From a virus, in IMG/VR virus record IMGVR_UViG_3300045988_122291, positions 1-64,000 of that record: 64,000 bases of DNA, one strand, 5' to 3'. The position numbers and the translations under genes are program-made. The first letter of the stretch is position 1, and the number at the start of each line of letters is the position of its first letter. The notes under the pieces are model-generated. The model was given only the letters and a program-made list of their open reading frames with translations, searched no databases and had not been told where the DNA came from. This document shows, in pieces, positions 3,257 to 29,365 of this stretch.

Positions 3257-4510
3257 ATGGGAAATAGCTTACCAGCTATGGGCGGTATTCGCCGTAAGTT
3301 TATGGCGAAAGAACTCCGAGGGACAGTTAGCGGTGCTGATTTGCTTGAAAAAGAGCAAGAAGAAAAAGTAATTGAATGGGACACATTATTTAGACGTAAT
3401 TGGGATATATACGCAGAGTTTTATCTTGGTATTGGTCTAAAACCATATCAGCGTGAAGCGTTGCATGAGATTGGCACATCCGATGTGTTCTTTTGGCGTG
3501 CTGGGCGTGGTGGCGCAAAGTCATTTATTACCGCTCTTGCCGCAATTTGTAAACTGATGCTTTACCCAAACTGTTGGATTGTTGTTACTGCTTCTACCAT
3601 TGACCAAGCAAACAAAATTGTAGAAGATAAGATATTAAGTGAATTGGTTAAAAAATTATCACCATATTTGTTGTATCTTTATGAAAAGCAGTGGCTTGTT
3701 ATTACTAAACCACAAGACGGTTATAAGATTGAAAATACGCTGAACAATAGTGTATTGCGTGTCCTTGCTCCTGTTGAGTCCAGCCGTGGTGTGCGTTCAA
3801 ACTTCACAATTTATGATGAAGTTGCTATTATGAAGAAGGCGAGTATCGACCAAATCTTTGATGGTATGCTTTATCCGCGTCAGCCAGTGTTTTTGAACAA
3901 CAATCCAGAATATGCAAACAACCCACGTTGGCTTGAAGAATCAAAGGCTATTTATCTAACTTCTTCCAAATATAAATATCAATGGTGGTATGGACTTTGG
4001 AAGGAATGTGTTAAAGGTTGGTTTGACGATAAAAAGACAGTGTTCAATGTTTTCGCTTCAGACTTTTTCGATAATATTGATAACGGTCTAAAGACATGGG
4101 GCGACTATCGCCGTGCTAAAAAGACTACGGAAGAATTTTCTTTCCGTATGGAATATCTTAATGAAGCGATAGGCGAAAATGAACACGCCTATTTTACCAT
4201 TCAGCAATTCAAAGAAAACCAAACGCTTGAAAAAGCATTTGTTCCTCCAACAAATATCGAAGTTATAACTCAAACCGTGCCTTACAATCCACCGAAGGGC
4301 GAAGATGAAGTACGCTTGATTCTTGTTGACTACGCATTTGCTAATACAGTAAAGGGCGCTGGTCGAAAAGCAAACGACAATACGATTATTATTTGTATGT
4401 CTTTGCATTGGAAAGAGAATCATTTTGAGCGTCATGTTGATTATATTCAAGGTTGGGAGGCTTCTGATTCTACTGGTGCAGTAAATCGTATTCGTGAACT
4501 ATATTGGGAT
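3257..4510 (+). CDS. terL: terminase large subunit, exon 1 (ATPase and start of nuclease domain)
   Basis: Walker A-like RAGRGGAKS, Walker B-like TIYDEVA, nuclease-start LILVDYAF. The frame hits a stop 27 nt past the predicted 5' splice site (U4510). Confidence 0.85.
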
Positions 4511-5770
4511 GAACATTATTGTCCTCTCTTATGGTAACATAGGAGTAATAAATCTACTTAACTGCTGGAATATCCTTAGAGCTATATTGACTACAACGTA
4601 AGGATGAAATATGCCTAAACGTGAATGTTTGAAAACAATATAGATTGGACAATCAGCAACCAAGGCTCGAACAGAGCAAGGCTCAACGACCATCCCGTAA
4701 GGGAGTAGGGGCAAGTGCCCCGAAGTAGTAGACTTCCAGAAATGGAAGAAGATATGGTCTATTCTTCATAGAAATATGAAGGCGAAAGCAGACAAGAATA
4801 ACGAACTTGTTTACAGAATATAATAGGGAGACAGGGAGTAGCTACCTTTCTGATTTACTGCAATAATGAAGATTATCCCTATTATATATTAACTTTTTTG
4901 CAGAAAGGTTGATAAGTGATATGAAATGTTATGAAATTAAGCACAATAAGAAATTTCGATACTCTTGTATTTATTTATGGACAAATTTAATCAATAACAA
5001 AAAGTATGTAGGTCAAACACAAGACCTCGGAGAACGATTTGTTAGATATAATCAAAATGATTTTAATGATTATATGAAAAAAGCTGTAAATAAATATGGA
5101 ATAGATAATTTTGAAATAACAATTCTTGAAAAAGACGTTCCTAAAGAGAAGTTGAATGAACGAGAACAATATTGGATGGATTATTTTCAGTCTTATAATT
5201 CTGATTATGGATATAATATTTGCAAAATCGCAGGTAGCTGTCGCGGTGTAAAAAGAAGCGAAGAATATAAGCAAGCGTGTTCCGAGAGAATGCTTGATAG
5301 AATAGCTAATGGCGAAACAATTTGGCTTGGCAGAACTCATTCAAAAGAAACAAAAGAACTAATGTCTGAGAAAGCCAAGCAATTACATGAAAATTATCCT
5401 GAAATTTGGTCTAATCATCATAAATATACAGAAGAAGAAAAACAAGCAACTTCTGAATTTTTCAAAGAATATTGGAAAACTCATGAGCATTCTTGGAAGG
5501 GTAAAAATCATACACCTGAATCAAAGAAGAAAATGAGCGAAGCAATGAACAAAAACCCGAATAGGAACAGAAGAATGAGAAAAGTTGAATGTTACACTTT
5601 AGAAGGAAACTATATTTGTACTTATGTTTCCGCTTCTGAAGCTGCAAGAAGTATCGGGCATCCGAAAGGTGCTACTCCTATTCTTAGATGTGCTAAAGGC
5701 TATGAAAATTCAGCATACGGATTCAAATGGAAAGATGCTGGATTATATCACGAATCTGATAATATATAAG
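4511..5770 (+). mobile_element. group I-like intron in terL carrying a GIY-YIG homing endonuclease
   Basis: A 1,260-nt insert splits one terminase fold. Exon 1 ends in U and the insert ends in G. Joining gives ...RELYWD|YNADYIVDD... in frame. About 400 nt of stem-rich non-coding RNA (e.g. TAGAC 4729-4733 / GTCTA 4757-4761, GGGGC-AAGT-GCCCC) precedes the ORF. It shares a 37-nt block with the intron at 21351. Confidence 0.7.
4909..5769 (+). CDS. GIY-YIG homing endonuclease (I-TevI-like architecture)
   Basis: N-terminal CIYLWTN..KKYVGQT...GERF...YN...NEREQYW. Two NUMOD3-like repeats (GRTHSKETKELMSEKA, GKNHTPESKKKMSEAM). C-terminal HTH-like tail ending YGFKWK. The start may be TTG 4909 or ATG 4921. 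Confidence 0.85.
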   Translation: MISDMKCYEIKHNKKFRYSCIYLWTNLINNKKYVGQTQDLGERFVRYNQNDFNDYMKKAVNKYGIDNFEITILEKDVPKEKLNEREQYWMDYFQSYNSDYGYNICKIAGSCRGVKRSEEYKQACSERMLDRIANGETIWLGRTHSKETKELMSEKAKQLHENYPEIWSNHHKYTEEEKQATSEFFKEYWKTHEHSWKGKNHTPESKKKMSEAMNKNPNRNRRMRKVECYTLEGNYICTYVSASEAARSIGHPKGATPILRCAKGYENSAYGFKWKDAGLYHESDNI

Positions 5771-6382
5771 TATAATGCTGACTACATCGTTGACGACCAA
5801 CAGTCTGGCGGTGAAGTCATTTACAACTTGTTCACTCAACCTTGGGAGCATCCAGAAAGAGGACGCGCATGGAATAGTCACGGTTTTACTATCAGTGATA
5901 AAACTGAATATGTTTCAGCAGTGGCTATTGATAGCAAAATTGAAGATTATAAGATGCGTACAGTTGACCCACACGCTATTCCTTGCATTATTCCTGTTAA
6001 GGGTTCTTCAACACTTAACGATATTGTGTGGAAAGAAATGCGCCGTCAGCTTGAGTATGGTAATGTTAAGTTCTTGATTGACACTAACGATTTCCAAGAA
6101 ACTTTAGTTGACAATGGCGAATATTTCAAAATGACTTCTGAACAGTATGGCGTTGCTTGTGCTCCATACAATCACACAGAAGAATTGATAAAAGAAGCAG
6201 TCAACCTTAAAGCTGAGTTTAAGCAAGATAAGGTGCGTCTTTCTGAGCCGTTAAATGGCACAAAAGACCGTATTGTTGCTTTAGCCTATGGTAATTATAT
6301 TGCTACTTTAATTGAAAACAGATGGAATAAAGATATAGCACAAGATGAATTTGATATTGATTCAATTCAGCTTGTGTGGTGA
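5771..6382 (+). CDS. terL: terminase large subunit, exon 2 (nuclease domain, C-terminal part)
   Basis: YNADYIVDDQQSGGEVIYNLF continues the terminase nuclease domain begun in exon 1. There is no RBS or start of its own at this point. The joined product is about 621 aa. Confidence 0.8.
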   Translation, partial: YNADYIVDDQQSGGEVIYNLFTQPWEHPERGRAWNSHGFTISDKTEYVSAVAIDSKIEDYKMRTVDPHAIPCIIPVKGSSTLNDIVWKEMRRQLEYGNVKFLIDTNDFQETLVDNGEYFKMTSEQYGVACAPYNHTEELIKEAVNLKAEFKQDKVRLSEPLNGTKDRIVALAYGNYIATLIENRWNKDIAQDEFDIDSIQLVW

Positions 6383-6405
6383 TTATTAAAGAAAGGAGGA
6401 TTTGA

Positions 6406-7986
6406 TTGGCAGATTCTATTTCAAAACAAGACGTACAGGATGTCATTGATTTTGCACAAGCCATTGCCGCTATGTCAGGCGAATACGGTATGTATTCTCC
6501 AATGATGAGCAATCAATTATTGCAAAATCTAAACAACAATCCTCGTATTCCTTCGCTTGAATCTATTCAACAAGCATTGTCGTCTTATAAAGAAGATGCT
6601 GGCACGTTGCAGTCCTTTATGGACTTTATGAATAACTATGATATGGTATTTAAGCGTACTTTATATAGTTATGCAAATGTGCTTGCTTTTGACTTGTCTA
6701 TAACTTGTACTAATGCTTATTCTCAGCAAGATTATAATTCTAAAGAATATGAAGAAGATAAGAAGCGAGTATATGATTTTCTTGATAAGTTTAAGTATAA
6801 AGACGAGTTTAGAAGATGTGTAGTTGAAGTCCTACTACACGGTGCTTATTTTACTTGGTTTAGAAAGACTAAGTGGAAGAATCAAGGTATGAAATATGCG
6901 CTACAAATAATGCCACAACAATATTGTATGCTTACTGGATATTGGGAGAAAGGCTTACTATATGACTTTGATTATAGCTATTTCTTAAATCCCGGTGTTG
7001 ATATTGAAGGTTTCGACCCTTCTATGGCTAAGATGTATCGTCAAATGTTTATTGACGGCGATGGTAGATTGTATAATTATCGTCCTACCCAACCGTTGAA
7101 TAGACGTACTGGTAAATATGCTTATTGGGGACAGACTTCCCCTGAGGATGGTTCATGGGTTTTTAAGCAAAATCCAGAGAACTTTAATACCACGCCATAT
7201 CTTGCTCCTTTCTTGAAAGACGCTATCACTTCTGCCGAAATCCAGAAGTTACAGCGAGATAAGGATATTATTGGTGCTTCGGCTATTCTTGCGGGTGAAA
7301 TTCGACTATTTGATAGTGCAAAATCTCAAAAGGCTAACCAATTTGCTATTGACCCAAAAACCCTTGGCGGTTTTATGGCAAAGGCAAAGGCTGGTCTTGG
7401 TAATTTGCTAAAGATTGCGGCGCTACCACTTGAAAATACCAAATTCTATCAGTTTGTTGATAGCAATAGCGATATGTATGAAAATACGCTTGCTACTACC
7501 GCTGGCGTTGGTTCTGGTATCAGTCGTGTTATTTATTCGTCTGACCGAATGAGTAATGCTGAAATTGAAGCAGGTATTATTGACCAGTATAATACCATGA
7601 AGCCACTGTATTATCAGTTTGAGAATTTTCTTGATTTCTTTGTTAATAAGTTGACAAAGAAATATAAATTCCACTTTACTTTTGATGGATGCTCTTATCC
7701 ATTTGAACGCGAGAAGAGATTCGATAAGCTAACCAAGATGGCTGATAAAGGTTTGGTTATGAATGCTTCACAGTGGGCTTCGGCTATTGGTGTTGAGCCA
7801 CAAGTATTTGAACGTAGCCTTGCGGAAAGTAAGTACACGGGCTGGGTTGAAGAATATAGCCAGTTACTTATGAATGTTAATACGGCTAATACTGGTAGTG
7901 CTGGTGAAAGTGGCAGACCCAAGAAAGAAGATGGAGATTTGTCCGATTCGGGCGAATTGAATAGAGATAGTGAGGAAGGTATCTAA
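6406..7986 (+). CDS. putative portal protein
   Basis: 526-aa ORF immediately after terL. TTG start 6 nt after AAGGAGG. Acidic C-terminus. Size and position are typical of a portal; the family was not verifiable by eye. Confidence 0.6.
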   Translation: MADSISKQDVQDVIDFAQAIAAMSGEYGMYSPMMSNQLLQNLNNNPRIPSLESIQQALSSYKEDAGTLQSFMDFMNNYDMVFKRTLYSYANVLAFDLSITCTNAYSQQDYNSKEYEEDKKRVYDFLDKFKYKDEFRRCVVEVLLHGAYFTWFRKTKWKNQGMKYALQIMPQQYCMLTGYWEKGLLYDFDYSYFLNPGVDIEGFDPSMAKMYRQMFIDGDGRLYNYRPTQPLNRRTGKYAYWGQTSPEDGSWVFKQNPENFNTTPYLAPFLKDAITSAEIQKLQRDKDIIGASAILAGEIRLFDSAKSQKANQFAIDPKTLGGFMAKAKAGLGNLLKIAALPLENTKFYQFVDSNSDMYENTLATTAGVGSGISRVIYSSDRMSNAEIEAGIIDQYNTMKPLYYQFENFLDFFVNKLTKKYKFHFTFDGCSYPFEREKRFDKLTKMADKGLVMNASQWASAIGVEPQVFERSLAESKYTGWVEEYSQLLMNVNTANTGSAGESGRPKKEDGDLSDSGELNRDSEEGI

Positions 7987-16231: not shown

Positions 16232-16873
16232 ATGGCTTCTGCTAATATTTTCACCGCTGGCCCTGCTCGTGCGCTGTTTTTCTACGGTCAGGACTTGATT
16301 GGTGTTGGTACTACTCTAAGTGATACCACTTTCGATTCTTCTATCACCGCCGAGGAAGTACGCGGTGGTCAGGGCAACCTGCTCTACGGTCAATACTTCC
16401 ATGATTCTTCACTGACTGTTTCTATCACAGACGCAATGTTTAACCTTCAGTACGTTGCCGCAAACCTTGGTGTAAACCTCGAACAAGGTGGCATTTCTGT
16501 AACTGAAGAAGAGGTTGTTGTTGGCGCAGTTGGTGGCGCAGTAACACTAACTAACAAGCCAATCGCTTTCTCTGGTTCTTATATCGGTTGGTATAAGAAG
16601 CCTTCTGACGCTGACTGGTCTATCGGCACTATTGACGCTGACCAGAAGAAGATGAATATCGGTGGCGCAAAGGAAAACGAACATTATTGTGTTAAGTATT
16701 TCTATCAGAATGAGAACGCTAAGTCTATTACTATTAAGGCTCAGTTTGTTCCAAAGGTACTGCACCTTGTTCTGATTAACGACTTGTTCTCTGGTTCTAC
16801 CGCTGATGTAGCGGCTTCTACTGCTAAGTATGGTCGTCTAATTACTGATATTCCTCAGTTCCAGCTCGATGGT
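16232..16873 (+). CDS. major tail protein, exon 1
   Basis: 214 codons, strong structural-gene codon bias, located upstream of the tape measure. The frame stops 8 codons after the predicted 5' splice site (U16873). Confidence 0.6.
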
Positions 16874-17098
16874 AAAATTTTCAAGCGGTGTGCTTGAAAA
16901 TAACGCCACTTATATCAGGTGACTGGTATAAGCTCTGTGTTAAATGCTTTGAATCCCTAAAGCCTACAAAACTCAAACAGTAATTGGAAACGATAAGCTG
17001 TGTAGTTACGAAAGTAGAAAAAATTTGTAGGATATTCATAAGGTTAAATCCTAAGTGAATGTAAATGGGTCTTTAGCAGAGAAAGCCCTAAGTACATA

Positions 17099-17127
17099 TT
17101 GATTATTATTATAATATATAGTATAAT
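17099..17127 (+). promoter_or_regulatory. sigma-70-type promoter inside the intron (TTGATT-17-TATAAT)
   Basis: TTGATT 17099-17104, 17-nt spacer, TATAAT 17122-17127. Located about 100 nt upstream of the intron ORF. Confidence 0.4.
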
Positions 17128-17230
17128 ATGTATATGGGAGACTCCCAACGACTACTTCCTTGTGGGAAGGTAAGCCCAAGTGGGCTGAAAAATACAGCAC
17201 TTAATTATTCAAAAAAATATAAAAAAGAAG

Positions 17231-18073
17231 GTGATTATAATATTTGACGAAAATCAGCTTGTAGAAGTACGATGGAACTCTAATAATGTTAAGCATTTTA
17301 CTGCTTTAGGATATGAATTTACTAAACGCGGGGATACTTTTCAGGTTTTTGCGAAAGAGTTGCAAAATAGCAGTAGTTCTAAAGTAAAGTGTATTTGTGA
17401 TTATTGCGGACAAGAATTTATTACAAATTATGCTTTTTATAGAAAGAGCGTTAAACGTGGTAAATTAAGTTGTAAAAATTGCAAAAACAAGAAAATTGAA
17501 GATACCTTTATGCAAAAATATAGTGTAAAATCTGTTGGCGCTTCTGCGATTTGTCAAGAACGTGCAAAAGATACTATTGAGTGGCTTTACGGAAGTAGAT
17601 ATGCTATGCAAACTGAGCAAGGGCAAAAGCATTTCAAAGAAACCATGAAAGAACGATATGGTCATGAAAACCCTACATATTGTCCTGAGTTGGTTGAAAA
17701 AGCGCGACAGTCTATGTACGCAAATGGTACAGTTCTTTCTTCTAAGCCAGAACGTAAAATGGTTGAAATGTTAAAAGAATTGTATGGCGAACAAAATTGC
17801 ATACCTAATTTTCCAGTTGGAAACACCAATCTTGATTGTTTGCTAACGATTGGCGATATTAAGATTGACGTTGAATATGATGGAATTTATTGGCATAAAG
17901 ACAGAAAAGATTACGACCGCAAAAGGAATCATTGGCTTATAAGTCAGGGTTATAAAGTAATCAGAATTTTAGGCAATAATAGAAATACATTGCCTACACT
18001 TGAAAGACTTAAAGAAGAAGTAGATTATGTGCTGAATAATCACTCTTTAGGTTATATTGATATGAATAATTAA
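17231..18073 (+). CDS. intron-encoded Vsr/DUF559-like (PD-(D/E)XK) putative homing endonuclease
   Basis: C-terminal LDCLL...IKIDVEYDGIYWH...DRKRNHWLISQGYKVIRI matches the D...(E/D)xDGxxxH...D..R...L...G..V.R pattern of Vsr/DUF559 nucleases. Zinc-ribbon CDYCG...CKNC in the N-terminal part. The GTG start is uncertain. Confidence 0.6.
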   Translation: MIIIFDENQLVEVRWNSNNVKHFTALGYEFTKRGDTFQVFAKELQNSSSSKVKCICDYCGQEFITNYAFYRKSVKRGKLSCKNCKNKKIEDTFMQKYSVKSVGASAICQERAKDTIEWLYGSRYAMQTEQGQKHFKETMKERYGHENPTYCPELVEKARQSMYANGTVLSSKPERKMVEMLKELYGEQNCIPNFPVGNTNLDCLLTIGDIKIDVEYDGIYWHKDRKDYDRKRNHWLISQGYKVIRILGNNRNTLPTLERLKEEVDYVLNNHSLGYIDMNN

Positions 18074-18173
18074 GTTGAACATATAGTCTGCTCTCATGTG
18101 AAAGCATGAGCAGTTCATAAAAGAACGGCATAGAATTAACGACTCTATGTGAACATTAGGCGCACAAAATTTG

Positions 18174-18602
18174 GCATGGGCGGCAGCTTCTGCGGCAACT
18201 GTTTCCCTGTCTGGTAAGGCACTGGCATATGCTGATACCGAATCTTGCGAAGTAGACCCGGTATATGGCACTATGACTCAGGAAATTTTTGGCTCTAAGT
18301 GGCAAGATGATGTTGTGGCACTCGCTTGCGAGAACGCTGACCTTGATGTTGCTACTTCTGGTACTGATACTCTAATTGTTCGCGCAGTATTTGGTGGCGC
18401 AATTGCTTCTCAGCGTAAGGATAATTCTAACTTTACTTTCGCTGTTGTAGATGCTCCTGCTTCTACTGCAACTGGTACTACTGTTGGTGCTAATACTGGC
18501 ATTGTAACTGCTGGTACTCAAGCTGGTACTGCTGTAATTTCTATTACACTCACTGGCTATGCGAACGTACCGCCCGCATACGCTACCGTAACTGTTGGTT
18601 AA
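18174..18602 (+). CDS. major tail protein, exon 2 (includes C-terminal Ig-like domain)
   Basis: No independent RBS. The C-terminus TFAVVDAPAST...GTAVISITLTGYANVPPAYATVTV looks like the Ig-like extension common on siphovirus major tail proteins. The joined product is about 356 aa. Confidence 0.6.
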   Translation, partial: AWAAASAATVSLSGKALAYADTESCEVDPVYGTMTQEIFGSKWQDDVVALACENADLDVATSGTDTLIVRAVFGGAIASQRKDNSNFTFAVVDAPASTATGTTVGANTGIVTAGTQAGTAVISITLTGYANVPPAYATVTVG

Positions 18603-20231: not shown

Positions 20232-20263
20232 AAATAAGGTGTAGTACAGAATTGAGGATAACT

Positions 20264-20797
20264 ATGGTTTATTGTGGTATTGATGCTTCAACTACTGCGG
20301 TAGGATGGAGTATATTCAATGGTACTGACCTTATTGATTATGGGTGCTTTAGACCTAATGGTGATGATTGGCGCGACCGCACTCAGCAAATCGCGCCTTT
20401 CATTAAGCAACTATTAGAGAAGTATCATGTTGATAAGGTGATATTAGAAGATGTTCCTTTGATGGATAAACGAGGTAAGAAAACTTTGGTTATCCTTGGT
20501 GCTGTGCAAGGAATGTTATTAGGAGTAACATCTTCTATGAATATTCCTACCGAGTTTATTTTGCCGAGTTCTTGGAGGAGTCCAATTGGACTTTTTGATG
20601 GTACGAAAGCTGGTACTCATAGGGATGAAATGAAAAGAAAGTCAATAGAAAAAGCAAATGAACGATTCGGTCTTAAACTAAAGTGGGTATCGCCTTGTAG
20701 CAAGAAGAACGATGATGATATTGCTGATGCTATTTTGGTAGCATACTCACAGATAAGCAAAGTTCACTTTGCCAAAAATCCGAAAGTGAAGGAGTGA
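20264..20797 (+). CDS. ruvC: RuvC-like Holliday junction resolvase
   Basis: Start moved to the ATG after GAGGA. MVYCGIDAST (Asp 1), VILEDV (Glu), DDDIADAILVA (Asp 3/4) match the RuvC catalytic pattern. Confidence 0.7.
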   Translation: MVYCGIDASTTAVGWSIFNGTDLIDYGCFRPNGDDWRDRTQQIAPFIKQLLEKYHVDKVILEDVPLMDKRGKKTLVILGAVQGMLLGVTSSMNIPTEFILPSSWRSPIGLFDGTKAGTHRDEMKRKSIEKANERFGLKLKWVSPCSKKNDDDIADAILVAYSQISKVHFAKNPKVKE

Positions 20798-20801
20798 GTT
20801 T

Positions 20802-21350
20802 ATGGCAGATTTTAAGATTTCTATTGATACTGAATTAAAAACTACTGGTATTGATGGTCAAGTACAAGAAATAAAGTCTAAACTTGAAAATGCTTTAAAA
20901 AACATTAAGGTGACTTTAGATACTGAAAGTGCTAAAACCGATATAAATGCCATTCTTAAATCAATTAGTGAAAAACCACAAGCGATTAAGATTACTGCTA
21001 ATGCTGATGAAGCTAAATCAGTTGTTGAAAGTCTTACTTCCGGGTTAAATAAAGAATCTACTATTAAAGTTAATGCTGATTCTTCTCAAGTAAAAGAATT
21101 AGGTAGTGCAAGTAGTGAAGCTGCTTCTCAAGTAAATAGTCTTACTGAATCTGGTGTAGCGGCTGGCGAGTCCTATGCACAGTTAATGACGACTTTTCAA
21201 CAAATGGTGCAAGTGTATCAATCTATTTCAGAGCAAGTTTTTGAAGTAGATGATGCACTCACCGAATTTAAGAAAGTATCTGACCTTAGTGGAGAATCGC
21301 TTAATCAGTATGTAAATCAATTACAAGATTTAGGTAGCACAGTAGGTCGT
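20802..21350 (+). CDS. tail tape measure protein, exon 1
   Basis: 183 codons, repetitive Ser/Thr/Lys-rich helical N-terminus. The frame stops 2 codons after the predicted splice site U21350. Confidence 0.6.
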
Positions 21351-21710
21351 ACCGGCTGATATACTAACCGGAGTGTATAGATGGTAAATATGCACTAAGA
21401 AGTGTTCAAAACCCTTGAAAGCCTAAGAGCCTTACTACCACAACATAAGGATGAGATACGCCTAAGTGTGACGGTATGGAAACTCAAAAAACAGTAAGGA
21501 TGATATATGGTGGCAACGCCTAAGTATTGATATAAATATTGTATAGTGTTGATATAGAAATATCAATAGTGTAAAGTATTTATATAAAAAATGGCAGTTT
21601 GGGCGCGAAGTCCTGATGAGGGATGTGTCAACAGAGTAAAAGTTCACTTCCCTCCAAGAATATAGGGAAAAGAAGTATTCGGGCTGTAAGAGAAATCTTA
21701 TGGAATTATC

Positions 21711-21738
21711 TTGACATTATTTAAGTGTGTGCTATAAT
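21711..21738 (+). promoter_or_regulatory. near-consensus sigma-70 promoter with extended -10 inside intron
   Basis: TTGACA 21711-21716, 16-nt spacer ending TGC, TATAAT 21733-21738. Followed by hairpin AGTATCA-gaaggaga-TGATACT that presents the SD in its loop, then ATG 21761. Confidence 0.6.
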
Positions 21739-21760
21739 AGTATCAGAAGGAGATGATACT

Positions 21761-21997
21761 ATGTTAGAATTTGTAGTAATCTTTAGTATTCTTGCTATTC
21801 TTAAAATAGCAACCACGCCGAATTTTATTTGGGGGGTATGCTTGCTTATATCTTTTGACACTTTGTTATTGACTCAAGAAGGGTGGCTAATTATTCCTTT
21901 GTTGATTAGTCTGGGAGTTTATTGCAAAGGTCGGAATAAGCGAGTTTATATGGACGAATCTTATTTTATTACACACTTTTTTAATAAATGGAAATAA
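21761..21997 (+). CDS. intron-borne small membrane protein (three predicted TM helices, basic C-tail)
   Basis: 78 aa beginning MLEFVVIFSILAILKIA, then FIWGVCLLISFDTLLL, WLIIPLLISLGVYC and KGRNKR. GAAGGAG RBS 7 nt upstream. No nuclease motifs. Confidence 0.55.
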   Translation: MLEFVVIFSILAILKIATTPNFIWGVCLLISFDTLLLTQEGWLIIPLLISLGVYCKGRNKRVYMDESYFITHFFNKWK

Positions 21998-22009
21998 TGC
22001 CAAATAACG

Positions 22010-22330
22010 TCTGAAATGCTGGACGCTACTACAGAATTTCGTAAAAATGGTTTTAATGACCAAGATGCCGCAACATTAGGCACACTTGCGGCTAAATTTC
22101 AAAATGTAAGTGATGAAGCAATCACAGCAGGAGATAGTGCATCGTTTATTATCTCTCAAATGATTGCGTTTGGCGTAGAAGCTGATAATGCGTCATCCAT
22201 TATTGATAGTGTTAACGAGGTTGCAAACCAGTTCTCGGTTTCTTCGGGCGACCTTTCTAAAGCATTGGGTAATGTTGCATCTACTGCTGGTGCAATGGGT
22301 AACTCAATGGAAGAAACCCTTGGCATGGCT
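22010..22330 (+). CDS. tail tape measure protein, exon 2
   Basis: 107 codons. TEFRKNGFNDQDAATLG...QFSVSSGDLSKALGNVASTAGAMGNSMEETLGMA is the classic tape-measure core pattern. It is cut mid-domain. Confidence 0.65.
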
Positions 22331-22586
22331 GAAATCAGGTCAAGTAAAACAGAGTGAATTGACGGGAAAGGAAATACGGCTCTACGGGGTACGATTTCAA
22401 CTGTGCAAAAGCATGGTTGCCTAAAGCCTTATACACGAACTTATCATGGTAACATAGGTAAGGGTTCGGAGTAATTAACCGAAATATCGTAAAAGAGATA
22501 AGGATATATGGTCAATCCGCAGGGAAGATACCGTTGAAATACGGTATAACCTTCATCGACTATCGAAAACAATCAAGAATTATTTC

Positions 22587-22615
22587 TTGACAAATGTAAC
22601 TATTTATGATACAAT
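22587..22615 (+). promoter_or_regulatory. consensus sigma-70 promoter with extended -10 inside intron
   Basis: TTGACA 22587-22592, 17-nt spacer ending TGA, TACAAT 22610-22615. Located 60 nt upstream of the endonuclease start. Confidence 0.6.
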
Positions 22616-22675
22616 ATGAATAGAATAAGATGATAATAAAATCATACGAAGTGAGTAGAGTAGGAGAAATCCGAA

Positions 22676-23866
22676 GTGCTCTGCGCCTATGGTGAAGATA
22701 TAGTCAATCTTATGGGAAACTATAAGGAGAATATTTGTTATATGCCTAATAAATTAAGTTATGAAGAAGCGAAGAAATCTTTTGAAGATAAAGGGCTGAT
22801 TTTATTAGATAAAGATTATATCAATGCTTCTGTTAAAATGTCTTTTATGAATTGTCAAGGTTATAAAGCTATGATGAATCTTGGAAATTTAAGAAGTGGA
22901 AAGAATCCTTGCTATTTTTCTACAACCAATCCTTATACGATTGAAAATATTCAGAAATTTATGGAATTGAAAGGGTCTAAAACAAAAATACTTTCAACAG
23001 AATTTCGTGGAGAAAAAGATAAATTATATTTCAAATGTGGAGAATGCGAAAAAATTTTTACAAGAACGTGGTTGGATTTATCAACTGCGACTTATTGTGA
23101 ATGTAAAGAATGTGGCGCAATTCTTAGAGGGGTTGGACGCAGAAATTCTATTGAAAAAACTCAAAAGAAGTTTGAAGAACACAACTTAAAATTATTAGAA
23201 GTTCCTTATGGTAATAATGACCAAATGCTTGAATGTGAAGATTCAGAAGGTTATCGAGGATTTTGTAATTTTCGTAATTTACTGAGAGGTTCTTCTATTT
23301 CAAGATTTGACAAACGTGTTAATGAGAAATATTTCTTGTATAATGTTCAACATTATGCAGATTTGAATAATTACACTTGTCAAATAGTAGGGTATGCTGA
23401 TAATCAAAAGTGGAAAAGTTGCGGTATTAAAGTTCAATGTGAGTGTGGAAATAAATTTGATACTTCTCTTAATGCTTTTCGTTTAGGCAAATTTAGATGT
23501 GCTCATTGTGCAAAAAGCATATCTGCTTATGAAGCATTTGTTAAAAATTGGCTTGACAAACACGAAATCTCTTATATTCAACAGCAATGTTTTGAAGGAT
23601 GTAAAGATAAAATCGCTTTGCCGTTTGATTTTTACTTCCCTTCTAAAAATATGGTGATTGAAGTGGATGGACAAGGGCATTATTTTGTAGCAAATTTTAA
23701 CCAATGTTCAAATGAGCAAGCTAAAATTTCCTATGAGTTAACAACAAAACATGATAAAATAAAAGACAAATTTTGCAAAGACAATAATATAACTATTATT
23801 CGTATTCCTTATTGGGATATGGATAATAAAAAATATTTAGATATATTAACAAATATTTTCAAATAA
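22676..23866 (+). CDS. intron-encoded PD-(D/E)XK-type putative homing endonuclease with zinc-ribbon DNA-binding repeats
   Basis: C-terminal LPFDFYFPSKNMVIEVDGQGHY...DKIKDKFC..NNITIIRIPYWD (D..ExDG..H...D..K..I.RI). Two repeats of about 60 aa (F.....L.LL...Y.......G......N L..G). Zinc ribbons CGECEK...CKECG and CECGN...CAHC. GTG start 9 nt after TAGGAG. Confidence 0.6.
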   Translation: MLCAYGEDIVNLMGNYKENICYMPNKLSYEEAKKSFEDKGLILLDKDYINASVKMSFMNCQGYKAMMNLGNLRSGKNPCYFSTTNPYTIENIQKFMELKGSKTKILSTEFRGEKDKLYFKCGECEKIFTRTWLDLSTATYCECKECGAILRGVGRRNSIEKTQKKFEEHNLKLLEVPYGNNDQMLECEDSEGYRGFCNFRNLLRGSSISRFDKRVNEKYFLYNVQHYADLNNYTCQIVGYADNQKWKSCGIKVQCECGNKFDTSLNAFRLGKFRCAHCAKSISAYEAFVKNWLDKHEISYIQQQCFEGCKDKIALPFDFYFPSKNMVIEVDGQGHYFVANFNQCSNEQAKISYELTTKHDKIKDKFCKDNNITIIRIPYWDMDNKKYLDILTNIFK

Positions 23867-23872
23867 TATGTG

Positions 23873-26800
23873 GTTACAGCCATTACCGAGCAAACTCGTA
23901 ATGCAAGTAAGGCTTCGAGAAGCCTTAATACAATTTTTAGTCGCTTATCTCAAGTGACCGATGAAAATAGTGATACTGGTAAAAAATTAACTGATATTTA
24001 TGACGGATTGAATATTGCCCTTTATGATAGCGAAGGGCAAATGCGTAGTTCTTATGATATTCTTTCCGATTTGTCTACAAAATGGGATTCTCTTTCCAAA
24101 AATCAACAGAACTACATTGCCCTAACTTCAGCGGGTAGCAATCAGCTTAATGCTTTCCTTGCTCTCATGAATAACTTTGGTCATGCGACTGAAGCGACTG
24201 AAACAGCGATAAATTCTGCTGGCTCGGCAACCAAAGAGAATGAGCGTTATATGGAAAGTTTGCAAGCGCAAGTTCAAGCTCTTAAAGCGGAGTTCCAAGA
24301 ATTTGCAACAAACATTCTTTCTTCTGACCTTGTTAAGGGATTTTTACAAGCAGGTACATCTATTCTTAAATTTGCTAATACGGATTTAGGTCAAGCCATT
24401 TCTAAAATTTTACTATTTAATTTAACAGTAAATGGCATTAGTGGTATACTTGACTTGTTTGGCGCAAACATATCAAAAGTATTAAATCCCATGGGTGGAT
24501 TGAATACTATTTTTGAGAAAGCGTCAGAAATATTCGTCAAATTTACTTCTGGTGCAACCGAAGCGGGTGCTGCTTCTTCTGGATTGGGAGGGATTATTTC
24601 TCAACTTGGGAGTTCTTTTTCTGGATTGAGTAGTGGAGCAAGCACAAGTGTTTCTGCTATCAAAAATATTGTTGGCGCAATTTCTGCACTTCCTTTACCT
24701 GTTAAAATAGCTGTCGCCGCAATAGCGGGGCTTATTGCAATTTACAATAAACTTCATGTATCAGATAAAGAATTAACACAATCTATTGCAGATAAAGAAA
24801 CCACTATAAACAATACAAAGTCTCAGATTGATGAATATAATTCTACTCTTGAATCTAATAAGCAAAGAATCGAAGAAATCAACAGCGTAAAAGGAACGTC
24901 TGATTGGAACAGTTCACTTCAAACTGAAGCCGATACTCTTGAGCATCAAAACCAACTTATCGAACGTCAAATTCAACTTCAAGAGCAAAAATTAAAAATA
25001 GAGCAAGCAGCTCTTTGGAAAGACCAATCTGAACAATTTGAACGTACCTATGGCGAAAAAATGCGCTATACTACAAAGCAACAAAATGTTCGTGGTGAAC
25101 AAGTATCGGTTACTCTTACAGGTGAGGATGCCTACAAGAAAAAACTTAGTGACTTACAAGTAACTATTCACAAGTTTACGCAAACCCAGAATCTTGACTT
25201 TAAGGATGCTGCTGTTGAAGCAGAAGATTCTATTGTAAGTATTATTACAGAACTTGAAGATTACAAATCTGCCGCTGAAGCCGCAGGCGATACCACAAAA
25301 GCTAAATATATTCAATCTTTGATTGATATGGCTGAAGCCGCCGATTCTGTAGATGGCGGTACTATTAAAGAAGTTCTCGAAAGCACTGCTGATGGTGAAG
25401 CAAGCGTTGAAGAACAAACTTCTAAACTTGTTTCTAAGCTAAAAGAATTGGGCGATATTTCTATTAAGCCTAAAGATGCAGATTCTATGCAAGAATGGCT
25501 TGAGAGTCTTGATTCATCTCAAGTAGAAAAGCTCAATTCTTTGATAGACGATTTAGGTAATCGTTCTGATTGGTTAGCGGCTCAAATCAGCAATATGTCT
25601 GGGGCTGAAGCCGTTTCTTACATTGACGAAGTATTTCGTAGATTAAGTGGCGATATTAGAAGTGCGGGAGAAGCATATTCTGATTTTGAAAACGCTTTAA
25701 ATACAGATTATTCTGCACCATTAAAAGAAGTTTATGAGATGATGGATTACATCACTCAGTCTACTGAAAATGGTATTACTAATCTTAAAGCATATAATGC
25801 TTCTTTGCAAGGAATTTATGGCACAACAGATAAAAATATTATTAAAATCACCGAGCAAAATGCGGCAATGTCTGACTTCCGTAACGTTGCTCAAGAAGCA
25901 GCGGAAGGTCAAGCAACTCTTGTTGGCAATATCGAACAATATTTTTCTGACGGCGTATTCCAAGGCGACCTTCTTCTTGACCGCTTAAAAGAACTTAGCA
26001 CTTCTGCTACCGCCATTAGTAAGTATGGTAAACTTCTTGATTTTCAAGAATTTGATGACGGCACATTCCAAATCGCAATCAATGATTTTAGCAAATTGTC
26101 TGAAGTTCTTGGACTCAGCGACCCTGTTCTAAAGAGCTTTATGGATAGTCTCGGTGGTACTGTCGATTTTCAAATGGGTGATACCATTGACGCAGTAACG
26201 ACTACCATTCAGAATTTACATGAAGCGATAAGTGCTACTGGTACTGGTAGTATTAGTGCCATTGCAAATGAAATAAAGCAACTTCAATCTGTTGGCGAAG
26301 TTGATATTCGCACAGACCGCTTGCAAGAACTTCAAACACAGTTAAATGGTTTAAGTAAATACACCAATATGACCTTTGACTATGATTTTAGTAGTCTTAC
26401 AGGAGGAGAGTTGGACGTTGCCAGTGATGAGCTTACGGGTTTTGCTACAGCTTTGCAGAACCTTACTACCGAGTCTGGGGACTGGGATTTACAAGGTCTC
26501 GTAGACAGTGTTAATAGCGCTCTTGGAGATGAAGCCATCACACTTGACGGTGACGAAATTACTTTTAATACAGACGAAGCGGTATCGGCTTTTCAATCTC
26601 AACTTTCTGAAGCGTTTGGAGGTATGGACTATTCTGATATAATTGGTTCTGATGCCGGACAAACGATTATATCTAACTTGTTTGAAGGTGTCACCGTTGA
26701 TGCTTCTGCTGCCGAAGGTGTTGGTCAAGAATTTGCTGATGCAATTAAAACTTCAGTAGAAACTAAACTTAATACCACTCAAATTACCATTAATGGTGTA

Positions 26801-29365
26801 GGTGCTGAAGTAGCTTCTGATATGGGTCTTGCTATTCAAGGCATGAACGACTATGAATCAGCGACCAAAAACGCTCAAACCGCCTCTCAAAATTTGAATG
26901 GTGTAAATCTAAGCGGTATTCAAAGCGGTATTAAAAAGACGGGAGATAATGCTAATACTGCTCAAGGACAAGTAGACAGCTTATATAATTCCGCTTCTAA
27001 ATTAGACCACACTTTTACTGCAAAATTCAAAGCAGATACAACACAGTGGAAATTACCAACTATTCCATTAGGATATACACAATCAGGTACAACCGCTGTT
27101 GGTCAAACTCCTGCTTATGCAAGCGGATTACAAGGTACGCAGCCTATGCGTGCTCAATCAAGCGGAATGTCTCTTGTTGGTGAAGAAGGCGCTGAGTTCC
27201 GTATTACCAAGGACGGTAAAAAAGAACTCGTTGGTGAAAATGGCGCAGAGTTTGTAAAAGTAAACAAAGGCGATACTATTATTCCCGCTGATGCAACAGA
27301 AATGATTCGCAAAGGTGAGCTTAATGGATATGATGGTGGTTTGCGTGGTAGAACTACTGCAAGTGGTACTGGTGTCGCGAACGCAAGTCATGATGTTAAA
27401 ATAGGTGATATTACCAGTCGTTATACTGGTGAAAAAATTGCTTCTATTTCTAAAGCCACAAAAGCTACTTCTTCAAATACTAAGGCAACCAATTCTAATA
27501 CTTCTGCAAAGTCCGCAAACGCTTCTGCAAGTGCTAAAGCTACTGAAGCAACAGATGAATTAACAGATGCACAGAAAAAGCAGAAAGATGCCTTTGAAGA
27601 AGCCAACGATGTAACTGAGCATCATATTTTCCTTGCTGAAAAGAATGGCGCTTCTTATGAAAAGCTCATTAAGATGAATCGTGACTATCAAAAGCAGATT
27701 CAACAGCAAGCTGACTGGTGGCGTAGTCAAGGTTATGACAATGATTTAGAAGAAATTCGCAAATTACAAAAACTTTGGTGGCAAGTAGAAGATGACATAA
27801 CTTCTTATCAGAAGAAAGCTTTTGATGAACGTTATCAAGAATCTAAAGATTATATTGATGACCGCAATGACCTTGAAGATTGGGGCGCTGACTCTGAGAT
27901 TGAAGCATGGCATCGTGTAGAAACATGGATGGACGAATGGTATAAGAATGGACTTATTTCTTATGACTATTATCTTGAAAAGCGTAAAGAAGCTACAAAG
28001 AAAGCCGCCGAAGCAGAGAAAAAAGCGTGGAAAGAAGCCAAAGAAGCGGAGAAAAAACGTCTTGAAGATTGGCAAGATGTTTATGAGGACTTGTTTGACC
28101 TTGTAGCTGATAAGGCACAAGACGAAATCGACAAACTGGAAGAACAACGTGATACAGTTGAAAAATATTGGGACGATAAAATTGATGCGCTTGAAAAGGC
28201 GAACGATGAACTTGATGACCAGATTGAAAAGGAAGAAGCACTTGATGCTTTGGCTCGTGCTCGTTCCACTAAAGTTATGGTTTATCAAGATGGACGATTC
28301 CAATATATCAATGACGCGGATGAAGTTTCTGAAGCTAAAGCTAATCTTGATAAAATCGAACGTGACCAAGCGCTTGAAAGAGAAAAAGAAAATCTCGAAA
28401 AGCAAAAAGAAGCCGCTCTAAAAGCTATTGATGACCAGATTGATGCTTGGGAAAAGTATAAAGATGAATGGTCTAACGTTGTTTCTGAATATGAGAAAGA
28501 ACAAAAACGTCTTAATGTTCTTCAAAAACTTGGTGTTGACCTTGAAGCAGAAAACTGGAAAGAACGTCTTGGTAATCTTGAAGATTATGTTTCTCAATAT
28601 AAGAAATATATGCAAGAACTTACCAAAATTAACGCCGAACTTGAAGCAGAAAAAGATATTACTGTGGATTCCAACAAAGTATCTTCGGGTGCTTCTGCTG
28701 GTGGCGCAATCGGTTCAGTCATAGGCACTGCTACAGGAGGTATTCTTGGCGGTGTAATCGGAACGATTATTGGTACTGCTACAGGTGCGCTTAAAGGAAC
28801 GAGTAGTGGTAAGGGTTCTTCAAGTAAGGGAAGTTCTTCTTCAAGTAGTAGTAATAGTGTAATTAGTTCCGATAAAGGATATACTATCACTACAAATAAG
28901 GGTACAAGTTTTGTTAATAGTGCACCATCGGGTTCTACAATGACTGGTGGTGATGGCTCTAAGTGGACTAAGAACAAAGATGGTTCTACTACTATTAAAA
29001 CAAAAGACGGAACAACCCACACAGTTAAAGCGACTACAAAGCGTGCTTCTGGTACAAAGTATGCGCCTCGTGGTATAGCTCTTACAGGCGAAGAAGGTGC
29101 TGAACTTCAAGTTCTGAATCAAGGCGATGGCATTATTCCACACGACTTAACTTCTAATCTTTGGGAGTGGGGCGAAACTAAACCGAGTGATATTGTTTCT
29201 GCGTTCGCTGGTATTCAAAAAGACCAATCTGGTGTGACAATTTGCATAGAAAACTTCAATCCTTCTCTACCCAATGTTGTGGATGGTGAAGGTTTTGCTA
29301 ATTATCTCAAGAATAATTTCTGGCGTAATGTTATTCAGTATAAAACAACTATGGGGAGGGCGTGA
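23873..29365 (+). CDS. tail tape measure protein, exon 3
   Basis: 1,830 codons. Continues the tape-measure core (TRNASKASRSLNTIFSRLSQ). Long coiled coils, a Gly/Ser-rich hydrophobic patch, and two LVGEEGAE/LTGEEGAE...GD.IIP motifs typical of tape-measure C-termini. The joined protein is about 2,120 aa. Confidence 0.85.
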   Translation, partial: VTAITEQTRNASKASRSLNTIFSRLSQVTDENSDTGKKLTDIYDGLNIALYDSEGQMRSSYDILSDLSTKWDSLSKNQQNYIALTSAGSNQLNAFLALMNNFGHATEATETAINSAGSATKENERYMESLQAQVQALKAEFQEFATNILSSDLVKGFLQAGTSILKFANTDLGQAISKILLFNLTVNGISGILDLFGANISKVLNPMGGLNTIFEKASEIFVKFTSGATEAGAASSGLGGIISQLGSSFSGLSSGASTSVSAIKNIVGAISALPLPVKIAVAAIAGLIAIYNKLHVSDKELTQSIADKETTINNTKSQIDEYNSTLESNKQRIEEINSVKGTSDWNSSLQTEADTLEHQNQLIERQIQLQEQKLKIEQAALWKDQSEQFERTYGEKMRYTTKQQNVRGEQVSVTLTGEDAYKKKLSDLQVTIHKFTQTQNLDFKDAAVEAEDSIVSIITELEDYKSAAEAAGDTTKAKYIQSLIDMAEAADSVDGGTIKEVLESTADGEASVEEQTSKLVSKLKELGDISIKPKDADSMQEWLESLDSSQVEKLNSLIDDLGNRSDWLAAQISNMSGAEAVSYIDEVFRRLSGDIRSAGEAYSDFENALNTDYSAPLKEVYEMMDYITQSTENGITNLKAYNASLQGIYGTTDKNIIKITEQNAAMSDFRNVAQEAAEGQATLVGNIEQYFSDGVFQGDLLLDRLKELSTSATAISKYGKLLDFQEFDDGTFQIAINDFSKLSEVLGLSDPVLKSFMDSLGGTVDFQMGDTIDAVTTTIQNLHEAISATGTGSISAIANEIKQLQSVGEVDIRTDRLQELQTQLNGLSKYTNMTFDYDFSSLTGGELDVASDELTGFATALQNLTTESGDWDLQGLVDSVNSALGDEAITLDGDEITFNTDEAVSAFQSQLSEAFGGMDYSDIIGSDAGQTIISNLFEGVTVDASAAEGVGQEFADAIKTSVETKLNTTQITINGVGAEVASDMGLAIQGMNDYESATKNAQTASQNLNGVNLSGIQSGIKKTGDNANTAQGQVDSLYNSASKLDHTFTAKFKADTTQWKLPTIPLGYTQSGTTAVGQTPAYASGLQGTQPMRAQSSGMSLVGEEGAEFRITKDGKKELVGENGAEFVKVNKGDTIIPADATEMIRKGELNGYDGGLRGRTTASGTGVANASHDVKIGDITSRYTGEKIASISKATKATSSNTKATNSNTSAKSANASASAKATEATDELTDAQKKQKDAFEEANDVTEHHIFLAEKNGASYEKLIKMNRDYQKQIQQQADWWRSQGYDNDLEEIRKLQKLWWQVEDDITSYQKKAFDERYQESKDYIDDRNDLEDWGADSEIEAWHRVETWMDEWYKNGLISYDYYLEKRKEATKKAAEAEKKAWKEAKEAEKKRLEDWQDVYEDLFDLVADKAQDEIDKLEEQRDTVEKYWDDKIDALEKANDELDDQIEKEEALDALARARSTKVMVYQDGRFQYINDADEVSEAKANLDKIERDQALEREKENLEKQKEAALKAIDDQIDAWEKYKDEWSNVVSEYEKEQKRLNVLQKLGVDLEAENWKERLGNLEDYVSQYKKYMQELTKINAELEAEKDITVDSNKVSSGASAGGAIGSVIGTATGGILGGVIGTIIGTATGALKGTSSGKGSSSKGSSSSSSSNSVISSDKGYTITTNKGTSFVNSAPSGSTMTGGDGSKWTKNKDGSTTIKTKDGTTHTVKATTKRASGTKYAPRGIALTGEEGAELQVLNQGDGIIPHDLTSNLWEWGETKPSDIVSAFAGIQKDQSGVTICIENFNPSLPNVVDGEGFANYLKNNFWRNVIQYKTTMGRA

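Follow-up and report, generated by a model that had tools for sequence, protein, structure and literature searches.

A tape measure gene in three pieces

We examined a 64,000-nucleotide (nt) stretch of viral DNA, positions 1 to 64,000 of IMG/VR virus record IMGVR_UViG_3300045988_122291, which we call the window. Our analysis centers on positions 20802-29365, where three open reading frames (ORFs) lie on the + strand: 20802-21359 (185 amino acids, aa), 22016-22357 (113 aa), and 23870-29365 (1831 aa). A Pfam search divided one domain, PF10145, between the second ORF (profile positions 20-125) and the third (122-196), and a PHROG search divided the tape measure protein (TMP) family phrog_4211 in the same way (655-755 in the second ORF, 756-1710 in the third). 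When the reading frames were joined as described below, the product gave a single PF10145 match that spanned both breaks (profile positions 3-196 of 201; 105.4 bits, cut-off 33.2) and a single match to TIGR01760, "tape_meas_TP901" (residues 147-440; 129.1 bits, cut-off 28.8). The spliced product thus exceeds the curated cut-offs for a TP901-type TMP as one continuous domain. In Enterocloster phage PMBT24, the TMP is encoded by one uninterrupted gene, and the joined product aligned with that 1508-aa protein through both breaks (400 aa aligned, 41% identical). These comparisons of predicted proteins confirm that 20802-29365 contains the pieces of one TP901-type TMP gene, interrupted twice, and bear out the original prediction that the breaks fall inside one TMP domain.

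We assign exon 1 to 20802-21356 (185 codons, ending …VGRTG, with a TGA stop at 21357-21359), based on the ORF, alignment to seven intron-less homologues, and pairing in helix P1 of the first insert. Exon 2 extends from 22010 to 22330 (107 codons, SEMLDATTEF…EETLGMA) and exon 3 from 23873 to 29365 (1830 codons plus the stop). The most likely spliced product is a predicted protein of 2,122 aa, with a mass of about 230 kDa. Of the exon sizes proposed originally (183, 107, and 1,830 codons; about 2,120 aa in total), the second and third hold, while exon 1 becomes 185 codons and the product correspondingly 2,122 aa.

A Shine-Dalgarno sequence, GAAGGAG, precedes the exon 1 ATG, and both ORFs carried by the inserts also have one. 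None was found ahead of the ATG of the second ORF or the GTG of the third. With no translation signals of their own, exons 2 and 3 could contribute to a full-length TMP only through RNA splicing, and the earlier claim that tail assembly depends on splicing appears sound. Multiplying 2,122 residues by 0.15 nm gives a tail of 318 nm. Phage PMBT24, with a 238 nm tail and a 1508-aa TMP (PMC11035940), provides a ratio of 0.158 nm per residue and a length of about 335 nm. The predicted tail is therefore roughly 320-335 nm, and the initial estimate of around 300 nm was reasonable. The upstream neighbor of the TMP gene, 20252-20797, encodes a RuvC-like resolvase; the order of resolvase followed by TMP is common to the window and the PMBT24 annotation.

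Conserved group I architecture in both inserts

To examine the inserts, we collected related sequences and tested their structures with RNAalifold and explicit pair counting, rather than with a covariance model, over cores of about 400-570 alignment columns. For the second insert, intron 2 (22331-23872; + strand, 1542 nt), a 19-nt conserved word identified 20 viral contigs, and nhmmer extended the set to more than 25 homologous cores. Fourteen cores were aligned (alignment A1); most helices came from RNAalifold, while P4, P7, and P9 were added by hand. By pair counting, 95.2% of cells at 82 pairs were paired, compared to 78% in column shuffles and 32-41% when partners were slid by one to three columns. 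Compensatory change, with substitutions on both sides, was present at 59 of the 82 pairs. By blastn, a stretch within the split TMP gene of Enterocloster phage CB457P1 was 71% identical to the intron 2 core.

The helices of intron 2 follow the group I order. P1 (22326-22342) pairs exon UGGCU (22326-22330) with the guide GGUCA (22338-22342), leaving a U22330·G22338 wobble at the splice site. This layout, with U·G beside the loop, recurs with other sequences in the related contigs L016, L022, L013, L006, and L018; examples among the relatives include CCGGU/GCCGG, CUGGU/GCCAG, and UAGGCU/GGUCUA. The segment 22350-22366 contains the P3 5′ strand (22350-22356, partner 22677-22683; four compensatory pairs), the J3/4 sequence AA, and the P4 5′ strand (22359-22366, with a bulged A22362; partner 22516-22522). 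The sequence across J3/4-P4 is AAUUGACGGGAAAG, and that of the P4 3′ strand is AAUCCGCAG. Two other pairings that competed with P4 were discarded: the GG 110-111 with CC 213-214 pairing that RNAalifold proposed in A1, which conflicts with P4, and a CUGUG/CGCAG helix, which has mismatches in six sequences.

P5 and its extension helices (22419-22512) include a GAAA receptor of the 11-nt type (GCCUAAAG … UAUGGU, with the receptor reading CCUAAAG…UAUGG) and 19 compensatory pairs in the extension. P6/P6a (22523-22551) is followed by the P7 5′ strand GACUA (22558-22562), the two together occupying 22523-22562; the P7 3′ strand is UAGUC (22701-22705). P7 has three covarying pairs and appears in the family as GACUA/UAGUC, GCAUA/UAUGC, GAACA/UGUUC, and GAUUA/UAAUC. 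P3 (22350-56/22677-83) and P7 (22558-62/22701-05) interleave to form the group I pseudoknot. Between P7 and the P3 3′ strand lie four covarying hairpins that resemble P7.1/P7.2 (22563-22676; 18 of 20 pairs compensatory), a feature that likens intron 2 to subgroup IA. The 3′ part of the core (22684-22726) consists of P8 (22684-22694), the J8/7 sequence AAGAUA, the P7 3′ strand, and P9 (22709-22726) with a GAAA loop. The conserved J8/7-P7 sequence AAGAUAUAGUC (22695-22705) and a terminal (omega) G, G23872, are both present.

For the first insert, intron 1 (21357-22009; + strand, 653 nt, terminal G22009), a 30-nt conserved word drew 19 public viral contigs, from which we aligned 17 cores (alignment A2). 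Every member for which flanking exons were in hand has its intron at the same TMP position. Pair counting over the 17 members found 94.3% of cells paired at 72 pairs, compared to 30-41% with slid partners, and compensatory change at 35 pairs. P1 (21352-21371) pairs exon CCGGC (21352-21356) with the guide ACCGG (21367-21371), which places C21356 opposite A21367 at the splice site; compensatory versions across the family are CCGG/CCGG, CUGG/CCAG, CGGG/CCCG, and GCGG/CCGC. P2 (21372-21396; AGUGUAUA / UAUGCACU) abuts P1 directly and shows compensatory change in seven of eight pairs. The P3 5′ strand, GAAGUG (21399-21404), pairs with CACUUC (21645-21650). Applying RNAduplex to each member, we found P3 at the same place in differing sequence (GAAGUG/CACUUC, CCUCUC/GGGAGG, UUGUAC/GUACAG, GCUC/GAGC), with no convincing P3 located by this method in L017.

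The segment 21412-21427 holds the P4 5′ strand (CCC), an A-rich J4/5, and the P5 5′ strand with a receptor-like CCUAAG motif; the partner strands are GGC (21593-21595) and GGG (21601-21603). P4 and P5 have one covarying pair each, and their remaining pairs are invariant. The catalytic core (21610-21681), which contains a near-invariant 30-nt block, comprises P6 (21610-21624), P7 (21632-21638 with 21676-21681), the P3 3′ strand, and P8 (about 21651-21667). P7 is canonical, C21632(A)GAGUA with UAUUCG21681, having a bulged base beside a G-C pair, and covaries as GACUA/UAGUC, GAAUA/UAUUC, and GAGUA/UAUUC. The P9 hairpin (21687-21700) has a GAAA loop and compensatory change in four of four pairs. 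Intron 1 therefore has the group I core: P3-P9, the P3/P7 pseudoknot, the guanosine-binding G-C pair, and a terminal G. As no helices separate P7 from the P3 3′ strand, intron 1 is not of the IA type. The J6/7 sequence GUCAA is predicted to pair with TTGAC of a promoter downstream in the intron, described below; both are invariant in the family, which neither supports nor refutes the pairing. The covarying group I architecture of both inserts agrees with the earlier proposal that the TMP would be made by splicing them out.

Splice junctions

The 3′ junction of intron 1, …G|UCNGA(A/G)AUG, could be placed in 13 of 17 members and corresponds to G22009|U22010 in the window. In the guide strand of contigs L021, L004, and L031, UCUGA precedes the bases complementary to the end of the 5′ exon (GCCGG in L021 and L004, CCCGG in L031). 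The strand pairs both with the 3′ exon UCAGA, as a 5-bp P10, and with the 5′ exon, as P1. Because this guide pairs with both exon ends, it fixes the junction after a Gly codon (GGN|UCNGA). In the window, the 5′ splice site probably follows 21356. The predicted spliced cDNA would then read …GGTCGTACCGGC|TCTGAAATG… and yield the junction peptide TGSEMLDATTEFR, as against SEMLDATTEFR.

The base preceding the intron 1 splice site is the third position of this Gly codon, and its identity correlates perfectly with that of its partner in the guide. Among 17 members (columns 16 and 34 of A2), the pair is U·G in eight, G-C in five, and C·A in four; the C·A pair occurs in the window and in L003, L026, L028, L038, and L040. 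P10 pairing is absent from the window, L003, and L038, the members of this group that were checked for it. Among the C·A introns, the P1 helix has changed in a compensatory manner from CCGG/CCGG to CUGG/CCAG. Moreover, between the window and L038, exon 1 is 59% identical while the intron 1 core is 93.5% identical. Both observations indicate that intron 1 is under selection.

For intron 2, a close relative provides the empty site. Contig L040, about 90% identical to the window (95% for protein P0055), has intron 1 and lacks intron 2. Its empty site reads CTTGGCATG^GTTACAGCT, encoding …LGMVTAITEQ…. Relative to L040 (positions 3307-3340), the window carries 1545 extra bases, made up of the 1542-nt intron and GCT (22328-22330). 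If U must stand at the 5′ site and G at the 3′ site, 22330/23873 is the one join that keeps the frame. We retain this junction, which had been proposed; it leaves one extra Ala compared to the intron-less allele. The predicted cDNA is …GGCATGGCT|GTTACAGCC…, with junction peptides …ETLGMAVTAITEQTR and ALGNVASTAGAMGNSMEETLGMAVTAITEQTR. The GCT codon beside intron 2, absent from the L040 empty site, has the appearance of a one-codon footprint of intron gain. We infer that GCT serves as the exon strand of P1, and it may be the remnant of an earlier host site, such as the L018 exon …UAGGCU|.

A model for expression of the gene, and its alternatives

From these comparisons, the region 20802-29365 is very probably one TMP gene in which intron 1 (21357-22009) and intron 2 (22331-23872) are self-splicing introns of group I. 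In the model we propose, the late structural transcript would fold into two ribozymes, in each of which the end of the upstream exon and the internal guide sequence would form P1. A free guanosine would bind in P7 and attack the 5′ splice site, after which the last G of the intron would take the P7 site and the exons would be ligated. Spliced mRNA would encode the 2,122-residue TP901-type TMP, while unspliced RNA would yield only a 185-residue N-terminal fragment. In mixed infections, the intron 2 endonuclease, whose gene has a promoter of its own, would cut alleles that lack the intron (empty site CTTGGCATG^GTTACAGC), and the intron would be copied in.

Alternatives for intron 1 concern the position and the efficiency of the 5′ cut. 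The original prediction joined 21350 to 22010. With exon CGU paired to GUG at 21373-21375, this cut would give …VGR|SEML…, a 2,120-aa product, and a cDNA reading …GGTCGT|TCTGAA…. This join is in frame and allows a canonical wobble between U21350 and G21373, in place of the non-canonical C·A of the downstream site. Nonetheless, we consider it improbable. All seven homologues that lack an intron here carry two residues beyond a GR|SEML join, and the 21356/22010 join, …VGRTG|SEML…, aligns with …VARTADEMV… without a gap. A P1 formed by exon (A)CCGGC with ACCGG at 21367-71 covaries, and the GUG that the 21350 site needs lies within P2, which begins at 21372 and has seven covarying pairs. In 7 of 17 members, AGA or CGA replaces CGU, leaving no U for a site of this type. 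Finally, P1 together with P10 in the relatives puts the junction after the Gly codon. We thus move the 5′ site 6 nt downstream, to 21356, and keep 22010. With the cut at 21356, intron 1 might splice poorly or need a helper, so that it limits or times TMP production rather than being neutral. The C21356·A21367 pair and the lack of P10 in the window, L003, and L038 fit this possibility, as does the reduced activity of model ribozymes in which the U·G is replaced. We view it as rather unlikely, although less so than the upstream cut, since the C·A form has been retained in at least six contigs and the compensatory P1 change occurred inside the C·A group. In addition, a C·A pair can reportedly take wobble geometry in model ribozymes, a result attributed to Doudna, Cormack, and Szostak in 1989.

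For intron 2, the adjacent GCT could leave with the intron through a non-canonical 5′ site after G22327 or G22328, restoring …LGM|VTAITEQ…. The cDNA would then be ATGGTTACA (…GGCATG|GTTACA…) instead of ATGGCTGTTACA, which the canonical join predicts. The intron-less relative reads CTTGGCATGGTTACAGC, so that the insertion is 1545 nt, GCT plus 1542 nt, and splice-site bases other than U are known in these phages from the intron 1 family. However, a U·G beside the P1 loop marks the splice site in every intron 2 member examined, matching U22330; a site after G22327 would leave only two exon base pairs in P1; and L038, which has intron 2, retains the same GCT. We regard removal of GCT as very unlikely. 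Least credible of all is the absence of splicing, with three separate products or a gene killed by insertion of an endonuclease cassette. The CB457P1 annotation and metagenome gene calls do list such pieces as separate genes, and splicing is deduced here from sequence comparison. Against this, exons 2 and 3 have neither a Shine-Dalgarno sequence nor a plausible start, the breaks lie inside a single domain, both inserts show extensive RNA covariation, the arrangement has been retained in several diverged phages, and TMP is essential for tail assembly. Three other mechanisms were rejected in view of the boundary sequences, the stops in frame, and the length of the inserts. Instead of the GUGYG expected of a group II intron, the inserts start with UGAUAU and GAAAUC; they have no group II match in Rfam and encode no reverse transcriptase in either ORF, which excludes a group II intron; stops at 21357-21359 and 22355-22357 close the exon frames and exclude an intein. 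Translational bypass was ruled out on the same grounds.

Several observations weigh against the two-intron model. The splicing of both introns is deduced by comparison, intron 1 of the window has C·A in place of the U·G wobble and no P10, and the canonical intron 2 join, …LGMA|VTAITEQ…, adds one Ala relative to every homologue without an intron there. Also, searching the whole window with Rfam at the curated threshold gave no match; up to an E value of 10 on 2.8 kb, only chance matches appeared. The group I model RF00028 scored 25.9 bits (E 1e-4) on the isolated 445-nt intron 2 core, short of the curated threshold of 50 bits. A compact 350-nt relative in L018 scored 49 bits, and we attribute the miss of intron 2 to large peripheral insertions in the window core. 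With intron 1, RF00028 gave zero matches up to E 10, whether the core alone or the shortest relative was searched. As RF00028 is blind to this family, the assignment of intron 1 rests on comparative analysis. Megablast of 20802-24300 against phage records gave no match, and blastn of intron 1 against the same records gave only 35-nt chance matches to Bacillus phages.

Genes carried by the introns

The intron 2 ORF (22742-23866, + strand, ATG at 22742) encodes 374 aa with repeated zinc ribbons and, at the C terminus, a Vsr/PD-(D/E)XK-like nuclease. It matches phrog_559 (5e-47), phrog_9084, and phrog_7140, families annotated as homing or intron-encoded nucleases. The C-terminal segment FDFYFP…IEVDGQGH gave weak matches, below curated cut-offs, to PvuRts1I-like_N and AbaSI, which are Vsr-like. 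Homologues reside in introns of the intron 2 type in other phages. By domain, intron location, and homologues, the protein qualifies as a predicted homing endonuclease. Located 3′ of P9, the ORF stops 6 nt short of the splice site, and its Shine-Dalgarno sequence, AAGGAG (22724-22729), overlaps the P9 3′ strand. A sigma-70-type promoter (22587-22615, + strand; TTGACA, 17-nt spacer, TGaTACAAT; 11 of 12 positions with TG) is the second-best promoter-like site in 4.2 kb and falls inside the P7.1/P7.2 hairpins. The empty site CTTGGCATGGTTACAGCTATT from L040 is a candidate target for the enzyme.

Intron 1 carries no homing endonuclease. Its gene (21761-21997, + strand) encodes a hydrophobic, membrane-type protein of 78 aa preceded by the Shine-Dalgarno sequence GAAGGAG, and lies downstream of a sigma-70-type promoter (21711-21738, + strand; TTGACA, 16-nt spacer, TGcTATAAT), which was the best site of the scan (12 of 12 with TG). 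The −35 box, the spacing, and the TG/−10 box are conserved in the family. Between the window and L040, the ORF has 22 synonymous and 13 non-synonymous differences, and the resulting ratio of non-synonymous to synonymous rates (dN/dS) of about 0.10 indicates a real gene under purifying selection. Homologues, with identities as low as 56%, were found only in the same TMP-intron context. Neither the 78-aa protein nor the other small intron 1 proteins matched a Pfam or PHROG family.

A small ORF of 37-82 aa is present in all 18 family members examined (the window and 17 relatives, among them L021, L004, L006, L038, L040, and L041), mostly with a hydrophobic N terminus and a charged or aromatic tail, and none of these ORFs resembles an endonuclease. 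In 17 of the 18, the upstream region contains TTGAYW spaced 16-18 nt from a −10 box, TAnnnT, and usually both a TG that extends the −10 box and a Shine-Dalgarno sequence; the scan of L031 gave no promoter-plus-ORF call. The ribozyme of L038 is 93.5% identical to intron 1 of the window, yet its small ORF is unrelated. We tentatively suggest, at somewhat less than even likelihood, that this family represents group I introns in which the homing endonuclease is replaced by an accessory gene for a small membrane protein, expressed within a late structural gene from a conserved sigma-70-type promoter of its own. Under this proposal, the cargo varies between near-identical introns, and C·A and G-C pairs are tolerated at the 5′ splice site in place of the wobble. 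A literature search for intron-borne membrane-protein genes found nothing relevant.

Comparison with known introns

In Bacillus cereus-group prophages, TMP genes have been described that carry group I introns of the IA1 and IA2 subgroups at three sites (IVS1-3), including two in one gene, with related cores fitted to their sites via P1 (Tourasse and Kolstø, 2008; PMC2504315). TMP genes split by group I introns have therefore been known since 2008, and the window is a further case in a different lineage, among relatives of Enterocloster/Lachnospiraceae gut phages. As in the prophages, IA-type introns interrupt TMP at several sites, up to two per gene, related cores occupy different sites with adapted P1 and guide sequences, and only some copies have an endonuclease gene. 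Unlike the prophage introns, those of the window have no detectable nucleotide similarity to phage records except for the CB457P1 match to the intron 2 core, and intron 1 has a promoter, a membrane-protein gene, and a splice-site pair other than U·G.

The introns of phage T4 td, nrdB, and sunY (with I-TevI, I-TevII, and I-TevIII) and of orf142 in Staphylococcus phage Twort offer a second comparison. They are likewise of the IA type with P7.1/P7.2, and their endonuclease ORFs are looped out, with their own promoters and with ribosome-binding sites partly buried in RNA structure; Twort also has several introns in one gene. They differ in that the window introns reside in a structural gene rather than in genes of nucleotide metabolism, the window endonuclease is Vsr/PD-(D/E)XK-like with zinc ribbons rather than GIY-YIG or HNH, and the intron 2 ORF is 3′ of P9, ending 6 nt before the splice site. 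Closer in host-gene function are the introns in capsid and tail genes of cluster J mycobacteriophages, whose splicing was shown experimentally during late expression (PMC3706429). There too, group I introns in virion structural genes make assembly dependent on splicing, although the genes are different and those introns are experimentally confirmed, while the window introns are predicted from sequence.

The closest isolate with a split TMP gene is CB457P1 (ORF33/34/35; OP172753.1), which has a single intron, inserted elsewhere in the gene at about residue 388. In the PMBT24 study, the CB457P1 TMP is noted to be in separate ORFs, as a different TMP organization, and introns are left unmentioned (PMC11035940). 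In this phage (our contig L001), we observed an unannotated group I intron at 6075-7120, inserted in TMP at …|VVTAILKNF; the endonuclease region looks degenerate and is split, with ORF34 as one part and a C-terminal remnant as the other. Because these introns escape gene callers and Rfam, records of this clade list the TMP as two to four unrelated "hypothetical" ORFs; CB457P1 and many metagenome entries are examples. Such misannotation misleads inferences about tail length and taxonomy. A literature search for surveys of introns in phage metagenomes found nothing relevant. If our model is correct, tail assembly in these gut phages would depend on ribozyme activity. The less familiar parts of the system are the intron-borne membrane-protein gene and the splice-site pairs other than U·G.

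Introns in relatives and candidate introns elsewhere in the window

L038 shares the three-exon layout of the window, with introns 93-96% identical despite the divergence of exon 1. Using tblastn exon boundaries and the numbering of the window product, we found several intron positions within the first ~400 codons of TMP in this clade: about residue 185 (RTG|SEM), about 254, LG^L in L018, GMA|VTA in the window and L038, VTAG|TEIM in L016 and L022, about 378, and about 388 in CB457P1. At least six insertion positions make this part of the gene a hot spot, and many database homologues of TMP are exon-sized fragments. At the 378 site, the core in L003 (1757-3268) matches that of window intron 2 at 89% identity but comes with a different guide and an endonuclease only 28% identical. 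Thus, the ribozyme scaffold, P1, and the endonuclease evolve as separable modules, and the clade provides a natural series for the retargeting of a ribozyme core by P1 change and endonuclease swap.

Two or three cores of the intron 2 family occur in tandem, about 35 nt apart, in L010 (6218-7044), L018 (608-1435), and L019 (three copies). A mini-exon may lie between adjacent introns in these contigs, or the arrangement may be twintron-like. We also observed intron-2-like cores outside any TMP gene in viral contigs of 200-290 kb (L007, L009, L011, L012, and L019).

Two other loci in the window have a similar appearance. The terminase large subunit gene also looks split (3257-6382), between an ORF at 3257-4537 that matches the N-terminal part of phrog_2 (TerL) and an ORF at 5624-6382. 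Between the pieces, 4570-4640 matches the hidden Markov model (HMM) of the intron 1 family (E 5e-10), and 4909-5769 is a GIY-YIG homing endonuclease ORF (phrog_314, phrog_5123); the portal gene begins at 6406. A further intron is probable within 16232-18602. There, a virion structural protein ORF (16232-16897) matches phrog_2729 over profile positions 28-184 of 252 only. The 330 nt after 16897 contain group I-like motifs and weak intron-HMM matches (16931-17138), followed by a homing endonuclease ORF at 17231-18073 (phrog_12131) and an ORF at 18171-18602.

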